The notes under the pieces: model-generated
The model's database searches: none
Told to the model about the DNA's origin: nothing
What the model saw: the letters and a program-made list of their open reading frames with translations, nothing else
Assembly: GCA_963845565.1 (NCBI GenBank)
Contig: CAWJSJ010000001.1
Coordinates: forward strand, 960,001 to 1,024,000
Reading direction: 5' to 3'
DNA length: 64,000 nt
Source: an uncultured Methylomirabilota bacterium
GTDB lineage: Bacteria > Methylomirabilota > Methylomirabilia > Methylomirabilales > 2-02-FULL-66-22
Made by a program: the position numbers and the translations under genes
Shown here: positions 10,474 through 57,477 of the stretch, piece by piece
Numbering within the stretch: the stretch's first letter is position 1
Layout: each line of letters starts with the position of its first letter

Positions 10474-10702
10474 GTTATAGCTGGCAGCTGGCATTGGGCA
10501 GCTGACAGCGGACGAAGTGCCAGGGCTGGCAGCGGGCAGTTAGCAGCTGGCAGCAAGAGCAGAATAGAGAAAACGCCTTTACCTCCAAAAGGGCCACGGC
10601 GGGTGAGCCCTTTCCGTGTTCCGGCTGCCAGCTGCTTGCTGCCTGCTGTGATGCTGTGTTCCTGAGGACCGGACTCAACAACTCAATAACTCAATAACTG
10701 TA
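10474..10702. repeat. Inverted heptamer tandem arrays (CTGGCAG)n ... (CTGCCAG)n plus an AACTCAAT 8-mer run
   Basis: Visible 7-nt periodicity at 10474-10556 and its inverse at 10624-10656; AACTCAAT-like x3 at 10674-10698. Confidence 0.7.
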
Positions 10703-10720
10703 TCACTCTATCGCGGACTG

Positions 10721-11690
10721 TCACGGGGAGACCAGCTCGATCTCTCTCCCCGATGTGACCCAGCGCCGGGCGATCCAGAGCAACAACCCACCGGCGAGGG
10801 CGGCGAGCAGAAACGCCGGTCCGACGCCGCCGGCTCCCGCCATCCAGCGCAGCCAGCGGCCCAGGCCCAGCGTCCCCAGGCCCAGGCCCGCGGCGGCGAC
10901 CGCGGCGGCGGCCGCGACATTCCGGGGGGCAGTGCCGCGGAGCAGCCTCCCCTGCACGCCGTCCACCGCCAACTCGTACACTCGCCCCCGATGGCGGTAG
11001 CGCATCCGCCATACCGGGTAGTACAGTAGTTTGACGCGCGTGTCGACGTATCGCGTGTCGTCGTTGACGGAAGCCACTCGCCAGGTGGTCTCGGCCAGAA
11101 AGCGCTCGGCCGACGTCGTCGGCGCAAACACGACCGCCCGACTTTGCAGCGACACACCGTCGAAAGAGGAGCAGTGCCACGGGGGAGCCGGCGCGGCGGA
11201 GGTCCGCCAGCCGGATCTTGTCCACCCCCAGTTCCGGCAGCTCGCAGGCCGGGGCGATCCGGAGGACGTCCTGCTCGACCACCTTGGTGTCCTCACGCTC
11301 TTTCCCCGGATCCGCCAGCCATCGATCCAGCGCCTGCCCGCCCTGCTCGCCCTCGCCCAGCGGGGCGGGTGGCTTCACGCGCTCGCGTATGAAGACCGAC
11401 CCCAGACGGACGGCGGTGGCTTCGAAGAACGGGACGTAGCAGAGGCCGGCGGCCTCGACGCCGATCCGGCCACGCACCGTCGCGGGCACGTCCGGCCGCT
11501 GCAGACTCTGGAGCGCGATCCGGACCGCCGCCTCCCGGTCGACGGGCCCTTCGACCGTGTAACGCGGCACGGCATCCGGGGCCAGGACCAGGCAGCGGCC
11601 GCCACAGTAGCGACAGGCGGTGATCCGCTCTCCTTCCGCCAGACAGAGGGCGCCCCCGCAGGCCGGGCAGCCGAGATGCAGAAGCGCCAT
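10721..11690 (-). CDS. Zn-ribbon membrane protein (YdjG-like), frameshift at ~11164
   Basis: CPACG...CRYCG; LCYVPF and LLYYPVW motifs; VDGVQG; two C-terminal TM helices once the ORFs are joined. Confidence 0.7.
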
Positions 11691-17033: not shown

Positions 17034-18890
17034 TCACGGCTTCTGGCGTGACCACAGCATGTTGTACCCCTCCACGAAGGCGTTTACCGAGGCCACGATC
17101 ACGTCCGGCGAGGTCCCGCTGGCCACCACCCGGTTGTTCTTCGTATCCTTCATGGTGATGGTAGTCTCAACCGAGGCGTCCGTCCCGGGTGAGTTGATCT
17201 CGACCTGAAAGTCCACCAGGTCGAAAAAGAGCTTTCCCCGGCTCTCGGCGGCGCTCTTCAGGGCGTTCACCACGGCATCCACCGGACCGACACCGGTCGC
17301 GTCGGACTGCACGCGCTCGCCGTCGAAGGTGATCCAGACCTTGGCGGACGCCTTGCGCTTGAGCGAGGTGGTGATCTGGAAGTCCTCCACCTCGAGGATG
17401 GGCGCCGGCTCGGACAATGCCTTCAGCACATTCTCCACGATATACTGGAGATCCGCCTTGGTGATCTGTTTCCCCTTCTCGACGAAATCGGTCACCAGGG
17501 CGGTCACACGCTTGGCGTACGCCGCCGTGAGCTTCACCCCCAGCTCCGTCCGCACGGTCGCCACCACCTGCGACTGCGATGGCGGACGCGGAAACATCCC
17601 GCGATCCCCTTCCCGGGCCCCGGCCGCGCGGATCTCGTAGAGCCGCAAGCGCAAGAACTTGTCCACCTCGGCCATGGTCGGCTCGATGGTGGCCGGCGAC
17701 GGCAGCACCTTGAGAGCCGCCCTGGGGTCCTTCAGGCCGTTCCCGGTGGCAAGGCACACCACGACCTCGTCCGGCCTGATCCGCCCCGTGGTCAGCAAGG
17801 ACGACAGGGCGGCGACGGGAATGGCGCCCGACGGCTCGACAAAGATGCTTTCCTGGTGCGCGAGCTGCTGCTGCGCGTCCAGGATCTCCGCGTCGCTCAG
17901 AATGACGCCGCAGCCCCCGGATTCCCGCATGGCCGCCAGCGCTTTGAGGCCATCCAGCGGATCCCCCGCCGCCACCGCCGTGCAGACCGTGAACGGCTTC
18001 TCGACCGGCGTGGGGGCATCCAGCCCTTGCTGGAATGCCGTCAAGATGGGCGCACAGCCCTCGGCCTGAACCCCGATCATCCGCGGCAGTCGGTCCACCA
18101 GACCGAGCTCGTAAAATTCCTTGAAGCCTTTCCAGACCGCCGCCATGTTCGTCCCGCAGCCCATGGGCACCAGGACGGCGGCCGGCGGCCGCCAGTCGAG
18201 TTGCTCGATGATCTCGAACGCCTGAGATTTCTGCCCCTCCACCCGGAAGGCGTAGTCGCCGGCCAGGTAGAAGCCGTGGCGTTCGCTCATCTCCTCGGTC
18301 AGCCGCGCGGCGTCGCTGTAGGTGCCACGCACCTGCATCAGGCGCGCCCCGTACGAGAGCGCCTGCGCCAGCTTGCCGATGGCGGTTCCTTCCGGCACCA
18401 GCACGTAGCACGTGAGCCCAGCAACCGAGGCGTAGGCCGCCACCGAGGCCGCCATGTTCCCGGTGGAGGCGACGCAGACCGCCTTGGCCCCAAGTTCCTT
18501 TGCCTTCGTCAACTCGACCAGGCTGCCGCGGTCCTTGAACACGCCGGTCGGGTTCGCGCCTTCGTTCTTGATGTACAGGTCGCGGATACCGGTGCGTTCG
18601 GCCAGGCGGGTGCACCGATACAAGGGGGTGCCCCCCTCGTTCATCGAGACCACCAGATCGAGATCGAGCAGCGGGTAGAAATCGAGGTACTTGAGGGCCT
18701 TGACCGGTGAGGTGCGCAGGGAGTAGCGGTTCAATCTGGATCGGATGTAGGCGTAATCGTATCGGACATCCAGGGGATGCCGGCAGTCGGGACAGCGAGT
18801 GCTCGATTCCTTTTCCCGAACCAGTCGGCCGCAGGAGATACAGCGCAGCTCGTAGAAGCTGGTCCCGTTCTTTCGGCTCTTCGGCCCCAT
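17034..18890 (-). CDS. thrC: Threonine synthase fused to a LeuA/CimA-type C-terminal allosteric domain
   Basis: N-terminal CxxC..CxxC, EGGTPL, KNEGANPTGVFKDRG (PLP Lys), ASTGN, EPSGA, TGNGLKD; C-terminal GVGPVDA...GTSPDVIVASVNAF. Confidence 0.9.
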   Translation of the reverse strand: MGPKSRKNGTSFYELRCISCGRLVREKESSTRCPDCRHPLDVRYDYAYIRSRLNRYSLRTSPVKALKYLDFYPLLDLDLVVSMNEGGTPLYRCTRLAERTGIRDLYIKNEGANPTGVFKDRGSLVELTKAKELGAKAVCVASTGNMAASVAAYASVAGLTCYVLVPEGTAIGKLAQALSYGARLMQVRGTYSDAARLTEEMSERHGFYLAGDYAFRVEGQKSQAFEIIEQLDWRPPAAVLVPMGCGTNMAAVWKGFKEFYELGLVDRLPRMIGVQAEGCAPILTAFQQGLDAPTPVEKPFTVCTAVAAGDPLDGLKALAAMRESGGCGVILSDAEILDAQQQLAHQESIFVEPSGAIPVAALSSLLTTGRIRPDEVVVCLATGNGLKDPRAALKVLPSPATIEPTMAEVDKFLRLRLYEIRAAGAREGDRGMFPRPPSQSQVVATVRTELGVKLTAAYAKRVTALVTDFVEKGKQITKADLQYIVENVLKALSEPAPILEVEDFQITTSLKRKASAKVWITFDGERVQSDATGVGPVDAVVNALKSAAESRGKLFFDLVDFQVEINSPGTDASVETTITMKDTKNNRVVASGTSPDVIVASVNAFVEGYNMLWSRQKP

Positions 18891-18920
18891 CGGTCCCCCT
18901 ACCCGTTGAGAATTCGTGGG

Positions 18921-18949
18921 AGTGTATAGACACTGCACGACAGTGTCAA
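18921..18949 (-). promoter_or_regulatory. sigma70 promoter of thrC with an internal palindrome (operator candidate)
   Basis: TTGACA-17-TACACT; GACACTG-N5-CAGTGTC overlaps the -35 and spacer. Confidence 0.7.
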
Positions 18950-19185
18950 GGAATTCACCCGAGAACGCGGCGCTCGCACTCCGATGGCGGAGACACGCCG
19001 GCGTTTTGAACGGAGCACTGCTCGTGTTTTCCGTTTCGGCAGAGAGTTATGGCGAAGAGTGAAAGTGGGAGATGAAGCCCGTTTACCCGTTTCAAGCGAC
19101 GCACAGGCGGCTTTCTCCGGGGAATAATAAATGGAGGGGAATCTGGGGTAGTATGTGCGCAGACTAATCACTCAGCATATAATTA

Positions 19186-19198
19186 TATCAATGTGTTA
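19186..19198 (+). promoter_or_regulatory. IHF consensus site in an AT-rich intergenic region
   Basis: TATCAATGTGTTA = WATCAANNNNTTR with an AT-rich 5' flank. Confidence 0.55.
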
Positions 19199-19287
19199 GA
19201 GAATGTTACTGATGTGATTCTTAAGAATATCCAAATCGAGAATCCTGCCGAAAACCTACCGTGAGATACCCGGAAAAGCTCCACCGG

Positions 19288-19987
19288 TCATACGCGCCCA
19301 TATCGCCGCCATCCCCACGGAACGGACCGCCGCTTGAAGAGCCCGACCAGAAGCACGCCGGCCGCAAAGCCTCCGATGTGCGCGAACCAGGCGACCCCTC
19401 CCCCCTCGTGGTCGAAGGTCAGGAGTCCATTCAGGACTTGGACCACGATCCAGAATCCCAAGACGAACACGGCCCGAATCTCGACCAGGGGGAACAGGAG
19501 CCCCAGCGGAATCAGGGTCAGGACCCGCGCATGCGGAAACAGCAACAGGTAGGCCCCGAGCACACCGGAGATCGCCCCACTGGCCCCGACCATCGGGATC
19601 CGCGACGTCGGGTTGAGGAGGATCTGCCCAAACGCCGCAGCCAGCCCGCACGCCAGATAGAAAATGGGGAACCGCACCTTGCCCATGGCGTCTTCGACGT
19701 TATTGCCGAAGATCCACAGGTACAGCATGTTCCCGGCGAAATGGAAGAACCCGGCATGGACGAACATCGAACTGACCAGCGTCGCTTCCGGGGAAAACGC
19801 CCGGCCGAGGACTTGGCAGGTTCTCGGTGAGGCTACACGGAATGAGGCCGTAATAGAGCAGGTAGCGCTGACCGGTGTACGCGCCCAGCAGGAACAGCTT
19901 CAGGAACGCGTACGTATTCAGGCCGATGAGGAGCAGCGTCACCACCGGCGGGTACCGAGTCGGGAGATTGTCCCTGAGTGGGATCAT
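19288..19987 (-). CDS. Rhomboid intramembrane serine protease, frameshift at ~19824
   Basis: MIPLRDN start; SMFVHAGFFHFAGNMLYLWIFG, GASGAI, AWFAHIGGF. Confidence 0.9.
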
Positions 19988-45302: not shown

Positions 45303-46301
45303 CTACCGCCGCGCCTTCAGCCAGCTCATCATCCCACGCAGTTCCTTGCCGACCACCTCGACCTGCTGTTCGGCTTCCGTCCGGCGCATGGCCAGGAAGC
45401 CGGGCCGACCGGCCTGGTTCTCCAGGATCCACTCGCGGGCAAACTGGCCGCTCTGGATTTCGGCCAGGATCTTCTTCATTTCGGCCTTGACCGAGTCGTT
45501 GATGATCCGCGGGCCGCGGGTGTAGTCCCCGTACTCCGCCGTGTCGCTCACCGAGTAGCGCATGTACCCCAGGCCACCCTGGTAGATCAGGTCCACGATC
45601 AGCTTCATCTCATGCATGCACTCGAAGTAGGCGGACTCGGGCTGATACCCGGCCTCCACCAGCGTCTCGAAACCGGCCTTCATGAGCGCGGCGATTCCGC
45701 CGCAGAGCACCGTCTGCTCCCCGAAGAGGTCGGTCTCGGTCTCTTCCTTGAAGGTGGTCTCCAACACCCCGGCGCGCGTGCTGCCGATGCCCTTGGCATA
45801 CGCCAAGGCCAACTCCTTGGCCTTCCCGGACGGGTTCTGGTAGACGGCGACCAGCGCCGGCACGCCGGAGCCCTCGGTGTACACCTGTCGCATGGTGTGG
45901 CCCGGGGCTTTGGGGGCGATCATCGAGACGTCCACATCCGGCGGGGGCACGATCTGGTTGAAGTGGATGTTGAAGCCGTGGGCGAACATCAGGGTCTTCC
46001 CCGGCCGCAGCGCCGGCCGGATGGACTCCTCGTACACCTGCTTGTGGGTCTGATCGGGGAGCAGGATCATGACCACCTGGGACGCCTCGGCGGTCTCGGC
46101 CACCGTCCCCACCTTCAGCCCATCCCCCTTGGCTTTGTCCCAGGACTTGCTGCCCTTGTAGAGTCCGACCATGACCTCCAGACCGCTATCCCGGTGGTTC
46201 AGGGCGTGCGCGTGCCCTTGACTCCCGTACCCGATGATCCCGATGGTCTTCCCCTTCAACAGCCCCAGGTCCGCGTCCTTGTCGTAGTAGAGTGTCGCCA
46301 T
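45303..46301 (-). CDS. ilvC: Ketol-acid reductoisomerase
   Basis: [38 protein letters not shown]. Confidence 0.97.
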
Positions 46302-46314
46302 GGATCTCCTCGTT

Positions 46315-46878
46315 TCAGTCGTTCATCGCCTGTTTCCGGCCGACCACCCGCACCCGGCTCTCCTCGCGTTTGGGGAGGCTCTTGCTGCCCCGGGCGATGG
46401 CCAGCGTCCCGCTGCGCACGATCTCCTGAATGCCGAAGGGCTGCAGCAACTCCAACACGGCTGCGACCTTCTTCTGCTCCCCGGTGACCTCCAGCGTGTA
46501 GCTGGTGGGGGTCACGTCCACGATGCGTCCGCGGAAGATCTCGTTGATCCGCAGGATCTCCGCCCGCGACGCCGCCTCGGCGTTGACCCGGACGAACACC
46601 ATCTCGCGTCCGATGTGCTCTTCGTCCGTCAGATCGATGACCTTGATGACATCGATCAACCGATGCAACTGCTTGACCGCTTGCTCGATGACCCATTCGT
46701 CGCCGTGGAGCGACAGCGTCATCCGGGACACCGACGGGTCCAGCGTCTCGGCCACCGACAGACTGTCGATGTTGTATCCTTTGGCGGCGATCAGCGAGGC
46801 AATTCTGGCCAGGACGCCCTGATGATTCTCCACCAGGACGGCCAGGATGTGCTTCCGGTATTGCTTGACATCCGTCAT
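46315..46878 (-). CDS. ilvN: Acetolactate synthase small subunit
   Basis: LVEN..GVLARI...GYNIDSL ACT domain. Confidence 0.93.
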
Positions 46879-46930
46879 GGGGTTCCGTCCTCTGCGCCAC
46901 CCCCGGCCGGCGCCGAGAGGCAAACGGCGG

Positions 46931-48664
46931 TTAGCGCCAGCCCTGGAAAAGCCGTTCGGGGATCGGCTCGCCCTCGTCGATGATCTCCCGCAGGCTGCAC
47001 CCGGCCGGGATGATCGGGTAGCAGTTCTCTTCCCGCGTCGTCACGATGTCCACCACCACCGGGCCCGGGGTGCCGATCGCCTTCTCGATGACGGGGCGGA
47101 CCTCACTGGGCCGCCGGGCCCGCAGGCCGGTGGCCCCGAAGGCCTCCGCCAGCTTCACGAAGTCCGGCTGGACCTCCAGATCCACCTGCGAGTACTTGCC
47201 GCCGTAGAACATGTCCTGCCACTGGCGGACCATCCCCAGATACCGGTTGTTGATGATGAAGATCTTCACCGGCAAGTTGTACTGGACGCAGGTGATGAGG
47301 TCCTGCATGGTCATCTGAAAGCTGCCGTCCCCATCGATGTCGACGACCAGTCGGCTGGGAAACGCCGCCTGCGCCCCCAGCGCCGCCGGAAACCCGTAGC
47401 CCATGGTCCCCAGCCCCCCCGAGGTCAGCCAGTTCCGGGGATTGCGCGCCCGGTAGTACTGCGCCGCCCACATCTGGTGCTGCCCCACACCCGTGGACAC
47501 GACGGGGTCGTGCGCCTCGGTCGCCTTGTAGATCTCGTCGATGGCGAACTGGGGCAGGATCGCACCGTCCGCCTCCTGCCGGTACCGCAGCGGGTGGCCG
47601 CGCTGCCACTCCGCGATCTGCCCGTACCATTCCGCCATCTCTCCGCGCCAGTCGCGCGTCCCCTTGGCCAGCTCAGCGTTCAGCTGGGTCAGCACGCGCT
47701 TCACATCCCCCACGATGGGCACGTCCACGTGGACGTTTTTCCGGATCGAGGTCGGATCGATGTCGATGTGGATGATCTTGCAGTTCTTGGCGAACTCGGA
47801 GAGCTTCCCGGTCACCCGGTCGTCGAAGCGGGACCCGACCGCGATCATCAGGTCGGCGTGGGCCATGACCATGTTGGCGGCGTAGGTGCCGTGCATCCCT
47901 AGCATGCCCAGCCACAGCGGATGCGCCGTATCCAGCGCCCCCAACCCCATCAGGGTCAGCGTGGTGGGGATCTGCGTCTGGTTGACCAGCTGGGTGAGTT
48001 CCGCCGAGGCGTCGGCGTGGATGATCCCGCCGCCGCCGTAGATGACCGGCCGCTTGGCGGCCGCAATCAGCTCCGCCGCCTTCCGGATCTGCCCGGGGTG
48101 GCCGTTGACGGACGGGTTATAGCTCCGGATCGAGACCTCCGACGGGTAGCCCTTGAACTCCGCGCGGCCCATGATCACGTCTTTGGGCAAGTCCACCAGG
48201 ACCGGTCCCGGCCGACCGCTGCGGGCGATGTAGTACGCCTCCTTGATGATCCGCGGCAGGTCCTCGGTCTTGGTGGCCAGGAAGTTGTGCTTGGTGCAGG
48301 TGCGCGTCGTCCCGACGACGTCCGCCTCCTGGAAGGCATCGCAGCCCATCACCGCGGTCGGCACCTGGCCGGTGAAGACCACGATGCCCATGGAGTCCAT
48401 CAGGGCGTCGGTGAGGCCCGTGATGGTATTGGTGGCCCCCGGGCCGGAGGTGACGATGGCCGTACCCGTCTGTCCGCTGGCCTTGTAGTATCCCTCGACG
48501 GCGTGGACCGCCGTCTGTTCGTGCCGGCACAGAATGTGGTGGATCGGGTAATCCAGAAGCATGTGGTAGGTGTGCAGGATCACGCCGCCCGGATGGCCGA
48601 AGACCGTGTGGGTCCCCTCGGCCTGCAGGCTGCGCAGGAAGATCTCCGAACCGGTCAGCCGCAT
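46931..48664 (-). CDS. ilvB: Acetolactate synthase large subunit
   Basis: RHEQ, TSGPGATN, FQE.D, RFDDRVTG, GDGSFQM, LGMVRQWQ. Confidence 0.96.
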   Translation of the reverse strand: MRLTGSEIFLRSLQAEGTHTVFGHPGGVILHTYHMLLDYPIHHILCRHEQTAVHAVEGYYKASGQTGTAIVTSGPGATNTITGLTDALMDSMGIVVFTGQVPTAVMGCDAFQEADVVGTTRTCTKHNFLATKTEDLPRIIKEAYYIARSGRPGPVLVDLPKDVIMGRAEFKGYPSEVSIRSYNPSVNGHPGQIRKAAELIAAAKRPVIYGGGGIIHADASAELTQLVNQTQIPTTLTLMGLGALDTAHPLWLGMLGMHGTYAANMVMAHADLMIAVGSRFDDRVTGKLSEFAKNCKIIHIDIDPTSIRKNVHVDVPIVGDVKRVLTQLNAELAKGTRDWRGEMAEWYGQIAEWQRGHPLRYRQEADGAILPQFAIDEIYKATEAHDPVVSTGVGQHQMWAAQYYRARNPRNWLTSGGLGTMGYGFPAALGAQAAFPSRLVVDIDGDGSFQMTMQDLITCVQYNLPVKIFIINNRYLGMVRQWQDMFYGGKYSQVDLEVQPDFVKLAEAFGATGLRARRPSEVRPVIEKAIGTPGPVVVDIVTTREENCYPIIPAGCSLREIIDEGEPIPERLFQGWR

Positions 48665-48799
48665 GGTGTATCTCCCCCTCCCGCGGGAGGATCGCTCCCG
48701 CCGGGTGTCTGCCGTTTTCTTCATCCGCCCGGCCGTCCAAGGCGCGGACCTAGGGGTCGGATGTAAGTTTTGATTTTTAACATGCGAAACGGTCAGCCG

Positions 48800-50831: not shown

Positions 50832-51353
50832 TCACCACTCCTCCAGCAGTCGGGCCACCAGCTTCGACGCCGCGTCCTGCGCCGCGCCCTGCACCGCCTC
50901 GTCCTCCGCCGTGCGCGTGCCGGCCGCGGTGGTTCCGGCCGTGTAGAACGCTTCGCCGACCACCACCTCCTTGAGCCGGACCTTGCCGTCGGCCCGCCCG
51001 ACCAGGGTCGCCGACACCGTGACCCGCACCCGGAACCGCCGACCGATGTCCTGCACGTTAAAGGCGATCGCTTCGTTCAGGTAGGCCGTGACGCTCCCCG
51101 AGAGGATCACGTCCGGAGGGCCGGCCTCCGGCGAGCGCAGGATCCCCCGCAGCCGGAGCTGGCGCAGCAGCGCCCCCGCCACCGCGCCCTGGACGCCGGG
51201 ACGAAAGGTTTCGTTGGTGATCGGCTCGACGGCCACCCGGGGTCCGCCCTCGGCCGAGCCGGTCGCCCCGAGGGGCTGATATCCGCACCCGACCGCGAAT
51301 GCCGCCGCTGCACCCAGCAGCAGGCATTGCACCACGATCCACCGTCCGCGCAT
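50832..51353 (-). CDS. lptE: LPS assembly lipoprotein LptE-like
   Basis: Lipobox AVG-CGY; follows leuS. Confidence 0.75.
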
Positions 51354-51363
51354 CGGCCTCCCC

Positions 51364-53965
51364 TCAGCCCGCCACCACGATGTTGACCAGCCGGTCCGGA
51401 ATCACGACCACCTTGCGCACCGCCCGACCCTCGATCCACGGCTGGACGCGCGGCTCGGCCAGCGCCAGGGCCTTGAGCGGCTCCTCGGCGTACCCGCGCG
51501 CCACCTCGCAGCCGCGCGCGGACCTTGCCGTTCACCTGCACGACAACCTCCACGCGCTCCTCCAGGACCAGCGCCGGGTCGGCCGTCGGCCACGCCTCAC
51601 GGAAGATGCTGGCAGGCTGGCCCAGCATCTCCCAGAGCTCTTCCGCCATGTGCGGCGCAAAGGGGGCCAGCAAGGTCAGGAGCACCCGAACCCCCTCGGC
51701 GAACGCCAGGACCCGCGGGTCGGCGGGGGAGGCGGCCGACACCCGGTCCTGGAACCGCCCCAGCGTATTCTGCAGTTCCATCAACGCCGCCAGGGCGGTG
51801 TTGAAGTGGAACGAGTCTTCCAGGTCGCGCGTGACCCGGGCGATGGTCTGGTGCGTCGCGCGGCGCAAGAGGCGCACCTCCTCATCCGGATCGCCGGCCG
51901 CCCAGTGCCCACCCTGGGCGGCGCGGAGGAGCGGCGCCCGCTCCTCGACCAGGCGCCACACGCGTTGCAGGAAGCGGAAGGAGCCCTGGACGCCGTCGTC
52001 CGACCACTCCAGGTCTTTCTCCGGAGGGGCCGCAAACAAGGAGAAGAGCCGGATGGTGTCCGCGCCGTAGTCCGTCAGCAGGTCGTCCGGGTCCACCACG
52101 TTCTTCTTCGACTTCGACATCTTCTCGGTCCGCCCGACTTCCACCGGGGCCTGGCACTCGCGGCATCGCCCCGCCTTGTCCACCTCGCCGGGCAACCGGT
52201 ACCCGTGGGTCGGACAGCGGTGGGACTCCTTGCAGACCATGCCCTGCGTCAGCAGGTTGGTGAACGGCTCGCCGACCGGGCTGAGGCCCAGGTCGCGGCA
52301 GACCTTGGTGAAAAAGCGGGCGTAGAGGAGGTGCAGCACCGCGTGCTCGATCCCGCCGATGTACTGATCCACCGGCATCCAGTGGCGGACCGTGTTCGCA
52401 TCCAGCGGCCGGGAGTCCGCGTGCGGACTGGTGAAGCGCAGGAAGTACCAGGACGAATCGACGAAGGTGTCCATGGTGTCCGTCTCGCGCCGGCCCGGAC
52501 GGCCGCAGGTCGGACAGGCGGCCTGCGCGAAACTCTCCACCCGCGCCAGGGGCGACCCGCCGCTCATCGTGATGGCCACGTCCTGGGGCAGGATCACGGG
52601 CAGGTCACGCTCCGGGACCGGCACCACGCCGCACGCGTCGCAGTAGATCACCGGGATGGGCGTCCCCCAGTACCGCTGGCGGGAGACGAGCCAGTCGCGG
52701 ATCCGGTAGTTCACCGCCCGCGTCCCCGTTCCCTGCTCTTCCAGGTGATCGCAGACGGCCAGGAGCCCTTCCTGGTTCGCCATGCCCGTGAAGCGGCCCG
52801 AGTTGACCATCCGGCCGTCGCCGTCGAAGGCCGCCTCCAGGGAGGCGCCGTCGCGGAGCGCCTCGCCCGTCGGCTGGATCACGACCCGGATGGGCAGCTG
52901 GTACTTCCGGGCCATGTCGAAGTCCCGCTGATCGTGGGCCGGCACCGCCATGATCGCGCCGGTGCCGTACTCCATCAGGATGAAGTTCGCCACCCAGATG
53001 GGGATCCGCTCGCGGGTCAGCGGGTTGATGGCGTAGGCCCCGGTGAACACGCCCTCCTTGTCGGTCGTCGCCTCCGTCCGGGCCGTCCGCTCGGCGCGCC
53101 GCATGCGTTCCACGAAGGCGGCCACCGCATCCGCCTGCGGGGTCCCCGCGGAGAGATCGAGGGTCAGCGGATGTTCCGGCGCCAGCACCATGAAGGTCGC
53201 ACCGTAGAGCGTGTCCGGTCGCGTGGTGAAGATGCGGATGCTCCCGCCCCGCTCCAGCGCGAAATCCACCTCCGCCCCGACGCTCTTCCCGATCCAGTTC
53301 CGCTGCATCGTGCGCACGCGCTCGGGCCACCCCGGCAGCGTCTCGAGATCCCGCAGCAGCTCCTCCACGTAGGCGGTGATCCGGAAGAACCATTGCCGCA
53401 GCTCCCGCTGGACCACCGGGGTGTCGCCGTGCCGCCAGCAGACGCCGCCCTCGGCCTGCTCGTTGCTGAGCACCGACTGGCAGCGCTCGCACCAGTTCAC
53501 CGGCGCGGTCTTCTGGTAGGCCAGGCCGCGCTCCAGCATCTGCAGGAAGAACCACTGGTTCCAGCGGTAGTAGGCGGGCTCGCAGCAGGTGACCTCGCGG
53601 TCCCAGTCGTACGAGAACCCCATCCGTCGCAGCTGGGACTTCATGTAGGCGATGTTGTCCCGGGTCCACTTGGCCGGGTGGATGCCGTGCTCAAAGGCGG
53701 CGTTCTCGGCGGGGAAGCCGAACGCGTCCCACCCCATCGGATGGAGCACGTTGTACCCGCGCATGGACAGATAGCGCGCCACCACGTCCCCGATGGAGTA
53801 GTTCCGGACGTGGCCCATGTGGATCTTGCCCGACGGGTAGGGGTACATCTCCAGGCAATAGTACTTCGGCCGGGTCGGGTCCTCGGTCACGGCGAACGTG
53901 CGGCGCTCGTCCCAGATCCCCTGCCATTTCTTCTCAATGGCACCAAAATCGTAGCCGCGTGGCAT
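51364..53965 (-). CDS. leuS: Leucine-tRNA ligase, frameshift at ~51508 near the C-terminus
   Basis: [23 protein letters not shown] continues in another frame as [21 protein letters not shown]. Confidence 0.96.
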
Positions 53966-53992
53966 GGACATCCTCCGGTTCTCCGTCCGCTC

Positions 53993-54021
53993 TATGTAAC
54001 ATGAGTCCCGCACGTTGACAA
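53993..54021 (-). promoter_or_regulatory. sigma70 promoter of leuS
   Basis: TTGTCA-17-TACATA with extended TG. Confidence 0.55.
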
Positions 54022-54045
54022 GTCGGCACGCCGCCCGACCGTCGT

Positions 54046-54780
54046 TCAATATTCGACCGACACGAGGCACAACCCGTGCGGGAGCGCCGTCTTCCCGGCG
54101 GCACGACGGTCCCGGGACGCCAGGATCTCAGCCAGATCAGCGGCCCGCCGCTTCCCCCGCCCGATCTCGAGCAGGGTCCCCACGATGATCCGCACCATGT
54201 GCTGGAGGAACGCGTTGCCGTCGATCTCGAAGTGCCACCGGTCGCCCTCCGCCCGCCAGGCGGCTCGCGTCACGGTGCGGATGGGCGTGGCCGCGGCGCA
54301 GGTCCCGGCGCGAAACGCGGAGAAGTCGTGGGTGCCGACCAGACACCGCGCCGCCTCCTCCATGGCGCACCGATCCAGCGGATACGGCACGTACAGACTG
54401 TATCGGGCCGCCACCGCCGCCGGATAGTCGCGCCGGAGCACCGTGTAGCGGTAGGTCTTGGATCGGGCGGAACGTCGCGCGTCGAAGTCCGGCGACACCG
54501 TCTCGGCGCGGCACACCACGATGTCGTGCGGCAGGAGCGCGTTGAGGGCCCGGCGCAGCGCGCCGTCGTCGAGGCGCAGCGTCGCGGTACAGCTGGCCAC
54601 CTGGCCGAGCGCATGCACCCCCGCGTCCGTCCGCCCCGCGCCCATCACCGGGACGGGCGCCCCGGCCAACCGAGAGAGCACCGCCTCCAGCCGACCCTGG
54701 ACGGTGTCCAGGCCGGGTTGCACCTGCCATCCGTGATACGCCGTCCCGTCGTACTCCAGCACCAGCTTGAGACGCCGCAT
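54046..54780 (-). CDS. truA: tRNA pseudouridine(38-40) synthase
   Basis: [33 protein letters not shown]. Confidence 0.96.
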
Positions 54781-55947: not shown

Positions 55948-57477
55948 CTACTTCCCGGCGCCGCCGGGCTGCCGCGCCACGACCTTGTTGATGGCATTCA
56001 GATAGGCCCGGACGCTCGCCTCGATGACGTCGGTCGAGCTCCCGCGGCCGACGACCCGCCGGCCGTCGATCTCCACCGCCGCCGTCACCTCGCCCAGCGC
56101 GTCCTTGCCCGCCGTGATGGCGCGGATCTGGTACTCCAGCAGCGTCCCGGGCACCTTGGTGATCAGATCGATGGCCTTGTAGGCCGCATCCACGGGGCCG
56201 TCGCCCCACCCCGATTCCTGGAACGTCTCGTCCTGCATCCGCAGGCGCACGGTGGCCGTGGGCACGATGTTGGTCCCGCTGGTGAACTGCAGGTGCTCCA
56301 GGGTGTACCCGTGCCCCGAGGTCAAGAGCTCGTCCTCCACCAGGGCCAGGAGGTCCTCGTCGAACACCTCTTTCTTCCGGTCGCAGAGATCCTTGAACCG
56401 GCCGAACGCCTTGTTCAGATCCTCCTCGCCCAGGTCCACCCCGAGTTCCTCGAGTCGCTTCTTGAAGGCATGCCGACCCGAATGCTTCCCCAGCACCAGC
56501 TGGCTCTTGGGGACCCCCACCGATTCGGGGGTCATGATCTCGTAGGTGAGCGGCGTCTGCAGGACGCCGTGCTGATGGATGCCCGCCTCGTGCGCGAACG
56601 CGTTGGCCCCCACGATGGCCTTGTTGGGCTGGACGTTCACGCCGGTGATGGACTGCAGCAGCTTGGAGGTGCGATAGATCTCCTCGGTGCGGATCGCCGT
56701 GTCGAAGGCGAAGAAGTCCTTCCGCGTGCGGAGCGCCATCACCAGCTCTTCCAGCGAGGCGTTGCCCGCGCGCTCGCCGATGCCGTTGACGGTGCATTCC
56801 ACCTGCCGGGCGCCGGCCCGGATGGCCTCCAGCGAATTGGCCACCCCCAGGCCGAGATCGTTGTGGCAGTGCGCGCTCACCACCACCCGCTCGATCCCGG
56901 GGACCCGGTGCATCAGGTTCCTGATCCGCTCGCCGAATTCCCACGGCAGGCCGTACCCGACCGTGTCGGGGATATTGATCGTGGTGGCGCCGGCTTTGAT
57001 CGCCGCCTCCACCACGCGACAGAGATAGTCCTGGTCGGTCCGGTGCGCATCCTCGGCCGAGAACTCCACGTCGTCGGTGTACCCCTTGGCCCGCTTCACG
57101 GCGGCCACGGTCGCCTCCAGCACCTCGGCCTGGGTGGTTTTCAGTTTATACTTGATGTGAATCTCGGACGTCGCGATGAAGGTGTGGATCCGGGGCCGCT
57201 CCGCCCCCTTCACCGCTTCCGCGCATCGGTCGATGTCCACGTCCTTGGCCCGCGCCAGTCCGGCGATGATCGGCCCCCCCTTGACTGCCTTGGCCACGGC
57301 CCGGACGGCCTCGAAGTCGTCCTGCGAGGCGATCGGGAACCCCGCCTCCATCACGTCCACGCCCAGCCGGGCCAGCTGCTTCGCCAGTTCGACCTTTTCC
57401 TTGGTGTTCATGCTGCACCCGGGCGACTGCTCGCCGTCGCGCAGCGTCGTGTCGAAGATCAGAATACGCTCTGCCAT
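55948..57477 (-). CDS. leuA: 2-isopropylmalate synthase
   Basis: [30 protein letters not shown]-terminal GDGPVDA regulatory domain. Confidence 0.96.

Follow-up and report, generated by a model that had tools for sequence, protein, structure and literature searches.

The 618-aa protein encoded at 17034..18890 of the window, as we call the whole 64,000-nucleotide stretch of Methylomirabilota DNA that was analysed, is probably an isoleucine-inhibited threonine deaminase that descends from a threonine synthase (ThrC)-like enzyme and stands in for IlvA or CimA. This prediction is based on how the domains are arranged, on the residue pattern, and on gene context and phyletic distribution; from these the reaction steps proposed below were inferred. 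The regulated step is more likely the formation of 2-oxobutyrate than the formation of threonine. Adding up the odds of the readings weighed below makes it likely that the enzyme is a dedicated 2-oxobutyrate source. The features of the gene and of its surroundings are as follows.

17034..18890, minus strand: whole fusion gene, 618 aa in one uninterrupted frame (ATG start, TGA stop).
18783..18842, minus strand: N-terminal CxxC...CxxC zinc-ribbon-like segment (C17, C20, C33, C36).
17742..18650, minus strand: ThrC-derived catalytic domain of PLP fold-type II, aa 81-383.
17418..17600, minus strand: three-helix bundle, aa about 431-491, homologous to subdomain II of LeuA, CimA and homocitrate synthase.
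17055..17468, minus strand: LeuA_dimer regulatory domain (Pfam), aa 475-612, with the CimA-type pocket I565, T570, V574, P595.
18921..18949, minus strand: sigma70-type promoter (TTGACA, 17 nt, TACACT; 10/12 match), about 30 nt ahead of the ATG.
45303..48724, minus strand: ilvB-ilvN-ilvC, the downstream pathway, 26 kb off and not co-operonic (ilvC by TIGR00465; ilvB and ilvN by the ORF list and tblastn).
55948..57477, minus strand: LeuA, the genome's only other LeuA_dimer protein, with the Leu-type pocket A, K, G, T.
Immediate neighbours of the fusion gene: rhomboid upstream; ruvX and mltG downstream.

An earlier note on this DNA had described a ThrC-like enzyme fused to the sensor of LeuA or CimA, and this architecture was borne out: within the one 618-aa frame, Pfam matched PALP (aa 81-383, E 1.1e-72) and LeuA_dimer (PF08502; 95 bits against a cut-off of 24.9, E 4.4e-27). 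The extra C-terminal residues, which the note had aligned by eye with the window's LeuA, were aligned with it by BLASTP as well (29% over 168 columns, residues 449-616 against 344-503, E 2e-13), and the quoted motif pairs fall inside that alignment. The note had also assigned the accessory modules of LeuA and CimA to the protein. Subdomain II is present as modelled helices, but subdomain I is not; no HCS_D2 (PF22617) match was found in the fusion by the same Pfam search that finds HCS_D2 in LeuA. Pfam also gave no HMGL-like match for a DRE-TIM barrel in the fusion. Residues 398-618 were modelled with AlphaFold (pLDDT 84.6, built on 67 rows); structure comparison paired this model with Leptospira CimA's regulatory domain in its Ile-bound form (3F6G; Z 12.8, rmsd 1.6, 114 aligned) and also with LeuA of M. 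tuberculosis (3FIG; Z 12.1). The model's helices at about 431-491 resembled subdomain II of the homocitrate/MAM synthases 6KTQ and 6E1J with middling Z scores (6.3 and 6.1). The full-length model was poor (pLDDT 70, and below 50 in the active-site loop; rmsd from ThrC about 14), so D212 could not be placed and this model was left out as evidence. The four N-terminal cysteines were invariant in all 14 aligned rows, and their segment had Pfam matches only below threshold.

A stop codon between the domains was looked for, and none was found. One contig from another run spans 17050-18962 with five substitutions and zero gaps compared to the window, and a second other-run contig covers the PALP/LeuA_dimer junction (17478-18014). 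A frameshift or assembly artefact as the source of the fusion was ruled out by these gap-free junction contigs together with the two-domain homologs. One of 31 genome matches, G078:C97:926-2776, carries an in-frame TAG. RNA contigs from one RNA run overlap parts of the gene and are uninformative on level or strand.

Residues 395-618, used as a search query, retrieved 135 proteins. Both Pfam families were found in 120/120 homologs among the matches listed, and the named carriers among them were Methylomirabilales/NC10, Nitrospinota and Peregrinibacteria. In a genome scan, the best 80 of 260 relatives comprised 43 close and 37 distant loci, the latter from Patescibacteria, Nitrospinota, DPANN archaea and other bacteria; all counts for distant loci and distant genomes given here refer to these best 80 of 260. 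Searching 50% representatives with a profile turned up roughly a dozen fused clusters of full length, followed by unfused relatives. Pooling produced 203 rows spanning both domains, and the 196 distinct ones belong to Methylomirabilales, Patescibacteria, Nitrospinota and DPANN archaea. Where source annotations are given for the family, they read either "threonine synthase" or an unspecific PLP-enzyme name.

A large unfused clade of about 365-430 aa shares the motifs STGNM and GD[YF] (L210-L289, P0152, P0165, P0168, P0169). LeuA_dimer was absent from 68 of the 80 metagenome loci of these GD-signature relatives (L210-L289), and none of the 68 showed an ilv neighbour or an evident pathway. Most lie on archaeal-looking contigs, with rps15, IF2, a helicase, an aminotransferase and a TPP-enzyme subunit among the neighbours. 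A catabolic Ser/Thr dehydratase is one possible identity of this clade, from which the fusion may descend.

LiCimA residues L451, Y454, I458, T464, V468 and P493 are reported to have roles in the Ile pocket. Among the 203 fused rows, the positions of I458, T464, V468 and P493 hold I or V in 203, T in 174, V in 200 and P in 201, while L is found at the L451 position in 202 and Y or F at the Y454 position in 202. In that alignment, the LeuA-type synthases carry A or S at 458 (residue 565 of the fusion) and G or A at 468 (residue 574). CimA-type synthases have mostly I, V or L at 458 and T, V or I at 468, with A and V in two probable archaeal CimAs. Taken jointly at 565, 574 and 595, the fusion pocket is unlike that of every sampled LeuA; the Y430 position is Val in 199/203 rows, as in LeuA. 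The LiCimA numbering was checked by alignment, by the structure match and against the available text of PMC13381585 (463K/464T). The CimA domain was the sole confident PDB sequence match to the appended region (E 2e-5 with the single sequence, 2e-14 with a profile), in a database that is poor in such domains. The base of a quick tree of regulatory domains (117 columns) does not separate a LeuA from a CimA donor. Judged by its residues, the sensor pocket looks CimA (Ile)-like rather than LeuA-like, and a LeuA_dimer-type domain binds Ile in CimA according to the available parts of PMC9860122 and PMC13381585. The earlier suggestion of branched-chain feedback, with Ile as the most likely ligand, is supported; threonine synthesis is the less likely target of it.

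The catalytic half descends from ThrC but carries an altered active site. It exceeded the NCBI thrC cut-offs (TIGR00260, 248 vs 167; PRK08197, 314 vs 303), its nearest solved structures are ThrCs, and its scores on the IlvA models TIGR01124/01127/02079 (65-91 bits) were all below the cut-offs of 379-441. No single solved structure matched both the PALP and the LeuA_dimer halves. The PLP lysine K119 (FKDRG; equivalent to K61) is present in 202/203 fused rows, with one gap, and R216, which corresponds to R160 of T. thermophilus ThrC, is retained in all 203. The replacements T88M, N154G, S155D and G190T (T. thermophilus numbering) occur in 203/203 rows, as does the clade signature M146, G211-D212, R216 and T247, and only three rows keep the N188 position of ThrC. 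By comparison, T, N, S, R and N occupy T88/N154/S155/R160/N188 in three solved ThrCs and in five others assigned by orthology or context. T88, N154, S155 and N188 of ThrC are reportedly phosphate-binding residues. In a quick tree, the fusion fell outside the 11-member canonical ThrC clade (support 96; six members chosen by motif) and far from IlvA. Since the canonical motif is also missing from many other ThrC-like paralogs, its loss cannot name the new reaction.

The catalytic half had been taken for the cell's threonine synthase, a premise that finds no support in view of the remodelled active-site loop and of a canonical thrC beside hom. Ten PALP matches were found in the source genome (98.7% complete), whose 351-aa canonical ThrC is encoded directly 3' of hom. 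A canonical thrC was present in 30/32 order-mates. A second ThrC was found in 15 of 20 stretches from distant genomes (at least 15 of the 37), several of them beside thrA or thrB. Elsewhere in the source genome, a diverged ThrC-like gene lies next to an unusual PALP gene of about 490 aa with a weak Pfam match (G000:C5:25261-27971, L004); the pair is a possible catabolic cluster.

The phyletic pattern was examined in a phylum sample of 121 Methylomirabilota genomes that were at least 85% complete, 33 in the order and 88 outside. The fusion was found in 30/33 genomes of the order vs 0/88 outside, and CimA in 0/33 vs 81/88; this exclusion counts as one order-level evolutionary event, not as independent cases. 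IlvA scored above the cut-off in 3/32 order-mates vs 27/40 outside (40 of the 88 were scored), and three order-mates (G144, G084, G153) carry the fusion along with an ilvA over the TIGR01127 cut-off. Dehydratase-like matches were seen in 10/32 order-mates, including all six genus-mates, and in 0/22 genomes of families f2-f4. Six PALP genes are present in the closed genome G045, namely the fusion, ThrC, another ThrC-like gene and, by eye, two CysK-like and one TrpB-like. G045 also has ilvC, RidA and one DRE-TIM synthase only, and neither IlvA nor a PF01053 lyase (at 1e-20) was found in it. The source genome holds possible alternatives, namely a PRK08246-like dehydratase, four PF01053 lyases and two unregulated DRE-TIM synthases. 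The latter (G000:C4:211222-212508 and C5:15855-17063) have no regulatory domain and are homocitrate/AksA-like by eye, and might be a source of citramalate. The available text of PMC7476758 describes at least nine routes to 2-oxobutyrate; the sources surveyed here were IlvA, CimA, dehydratase-like genes, DRE-TIM synthases and PF01053 lyases. Among the 37 distant genomes, which are incomplete MAGs, ilvC was found in 32, hom in 18, dehydratase-like matches in three (none above cut-off) and CimA-like synthases in about six. Seventeen of the 37 have ilvC without a hom match, and two of these 17 still have a second thrC.

The gene neighbourhood of the distant loci points to isoleucine synthesis. Within 8 kb of the fusion, 24/37 distant loci of the best 80 of 260 have an ilv gene, and 30/37 have ilv or ridA. 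The immediate same-strand neighbour, read by eye, is ilvB, C, D, E or ridA in 28/37. In the same set, hom and asd were each found once near the fusion and thrB never; aspartate-pathway genes are close in two loci, L067 and L069. The available part of PMC4433059 describes clustering of ridA with threonine dehydratase genes. Ile-rich leader peptides, defined as 10-26 codons with at least five Ile and no more than 250 nt upstream, were found in 14/35 testable distant loci vs 4/308 other genes. The residue totals of the fusion leaders were Ile 78, Leu 35, Val 17 and Thr 6, and attenuator-like hairpins and U runs were seen by eye 3' of them. The leader governs the whole operon, which opens with the fusion gene. 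Leaders rich in Ile, Leu and Val with such hairpins were noted in Peregrinibacteria and Gracilibacteria (L052, L060, L073, L075, L076, L078, L080, L081, L084, L085, L087-L089, L091). A regulated threonine synthase, as originally proposed, fits poorly with the placement of its relatives, which belong to ilv rather than thr operons and have Ile-rich leaders ahead of them.

None of the 43 close Methylomirabilales loci had an ilv neighbour and none of 35 had a leader, so control there would rest on allostery. A CimA-like synthase directly adjoins the fusion at L105 and L106. In six Micrarchaeia loci (L067, L071, L105, L106, L203, L204) the fusion is followed by a probable archaeal-type CimA, and elsewhere a canonical thrC adjoins a LeuA-type synthase; in those Micrarchaeia the two entry routes to Ile may be joined in a single operon. 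Outside the fusion gene, leuS (window 51107-54070) runs into non-homologous sequence near its C-terminus, ORF 10683-11690 looks frameshifted and purL (L001 74-2067) is split over two frames. These three anomalies are probably assembly indel errors.

Two promoter-like sites were found vs 0.2 expected. A TTGAC hexamer was read by eye at equal distance in 30/31 upstream regions of close relatives. No attenuator, riboswitch or operator was found in the 5' region of about 30 nt in the window, and the promoter lies too close to the ATG for either of the first two to fit. A longer reading frame from a GTG at 18938 was rejected because that position falls inside the promoter spacer and homologs begin at the ATG. 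A 7-bp palindrome in the spacer was likewise rejected as an operator, being absent from relatives. Farther upstream, window 18960-19290 is an AT-rich intergenic stretch within a 66% GC genome, and a second promoter-like site with an extended -10 lies at 19209-19182.

In the mechanism we propose for an Ile-inhibited deaminase, L-Thr would form an aldimine with the PLP held at K119, and elimination of water would then give aminocrotonate, which would reverse the last step of ThrC. D212, at the S155 position of ThrC and adjoining the retained Arg, might act as a built-in phosphate surrogate that disfavours O-phosphohomoserine, although this role is speculative and no better than a guess. The enamine/imine would be hydrolysed with the assistance of RidA, and the resulting 2-oxobutyrate would enter IlvBN/C/D/E. 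Ile bound between two regulatory domains, which would derive from the LeuA/CimA family, would restrain the enzyme through subdomain II, as in LeuA and CimA. The regulatory domain of IPMS acts through subdomain II according to the available text of PMC9860122, and a threonine deaminase side activity of canonical ThrCs is described in that of PMC12172450.

Several findings stand against a deaminase. The fusion passes the thrC HMM cut-offs and scores low on IlvA (91 bits); it coexists with IlvA in three order-mates and with CimA-like synthases in about 6/37 distant genomes; ilv neighbours and leaders are lacking in Methylomirabilales; and the unfused GD relatives have no ilv neighbours. The possible alternative sources in the source genome, the CimA exclusion being a single order-level event, the aspartate-pathway genes at L067 and L069 and the missing canonical motif in many other ThrC-like paralogs weigh against it too. 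One alternative is an O-phosphohomoserine phospho-lyase, which would make 2-oxobutyrate directly by gamma-elimination, with no hydration step and with threonine bypassed, and would keep the Ile feedback. The ThrC ancestry with R216 (R160) and K119 retained would suit such an enzyme, the ilv context, leaders and CimA exclusion fit it equally well, and hom is present in 18/37 distant genomes of the best 80 of 260. It is nevertheless unlikely, since an invariant Asp and the loss of T88, N154 and N188 fall at what is said to be the phosphate site, and 17/37 of those incomplete MAGs have ilvC and no hom match, two of them with a second thrC.

Another possible explanation is a genuine threonine synthase isozyme under allosteric control by Ile or Leu, providing the Thr from which Ile is made. 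The thrC cut-offs, the nearest solved structures and the database name all speak for it. However, a second, canonical thrC is present and the active-site loop is remodelled. An isozyme would also leave G045 and 22 genomes of f2-f4 without any detected 2-oxobutyrate source and the ridA adjacency unexplained, and we regard it as improbable. The enzyme could also be a bifunctional or broader Ser/Thr dehydratase, or catalyse another PLP elimination, with a sensor for Leu, Val or multiple ligands and as one of several 2-oxobutyrate sources. This would accommodate the unfused GD relatives on archaeal-looking contigs without ilv genes, the Val at the LiCimA Y430 position as in LeuA, and a domain tree that names no donor, and a moonlighting ThrC is known from the available text of PMC12172450. 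The joint difference of the pocket from all sampled LeuA at 565/574/595 and the Ile-dominated leaders argue against this broader role, which likewise has little probability. We retain the Ile-inhibited threonine deaminase as the best reading.

The fusion shares features with several known systems. It has the fold and PLP lysine of short-type ThrC (EC 4.2.3.1; Aquifex 2ZSJ, T. thermophilus 1UIM/1V7C, M. tuberculosis 2D1F, B. subtilis 6CGQ), with about 42-44% identity to 2ZSJ, 1UIM/1V7C and 2D1F. Unlike these enzymes, it has the T88/N154/S155/N188 positions replaced, forms a separate clade, carries an extra 200-aa regulatory module, occurs in ilv rather than thr context and coexists with a canonical thrC. 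Like IlvA (EC 4.3.1.19, E. coli 1TDJ), it joins a fold-type II PLP enzyme to a C-terminal amino-acid sensor, and the proposed reaction and predicted Ile feedback are also IlvA-like, as are the ilv/ridA context and the leader, in distant loci only. It is not an IlvA ortholog, with 91 bits on TIGR01127 vs 379 and a LeuA_dimer rather than an ACT-like sensor. [quoted passage not shown] CimA, which opens a pathway to the same end product, is Ile-inhibited according to the available parts of PMC9860122 and PMC13381585. In the available text of PMC12172450, the ThrC of Microcystis aeruginosa is a ThrC-family enzyme that acts in vitro as a threonine deaminase, giving 2-oxobutyrate. That protein, likened here by its description, is reported to be mainly a synthase, its genome keeps ilvA, and no LeuA_dimer is mentioned there.

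No description of a ThrC-LeuA_dimer fusion was found in the available PMC and bioRxiv literature. The available portions of PMC12131731 and PMC7311316 do not mention the fused family, and for ThrC those of PMC9081730, a review of PLP-enzyme allostery, cover only SAM activation of the plant enzyme. On balance, we favour the view that the family is a third dedicated, feedback-regulated entry to Ile, in which an Asp-switched ThrC-like enzyme with a CimA sensor spread widely and displaced CimA. The Asp at the product-phosphate site would have brought in elimination chemistry, and a CimA-type sensor would have been taken on. The enzyme would then have spread over bacteria and archaea and displaced CimA order-wide, under a "threonine synthase" annotation wherever it is named.

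If this is true, the missing first step of Ile synthesis would be filled in Methylomirabilales, the order with the nitrite-dependent methane oxidisers. The same gap would be filled in many Patescibacteria and DPANN that have ilvBCDE and no detected IlvA or CimA, and auxotrophy predictions for those genomes would therefore change. An Ile-inhibited deaminase would have evolved convergently from different parts, and the family would offer a natural setting in which to ask why ThrC carries out hydration and not deamination. It would also mean that LeuA_dimer allostery is transferable to an unrelated catalytic fold.
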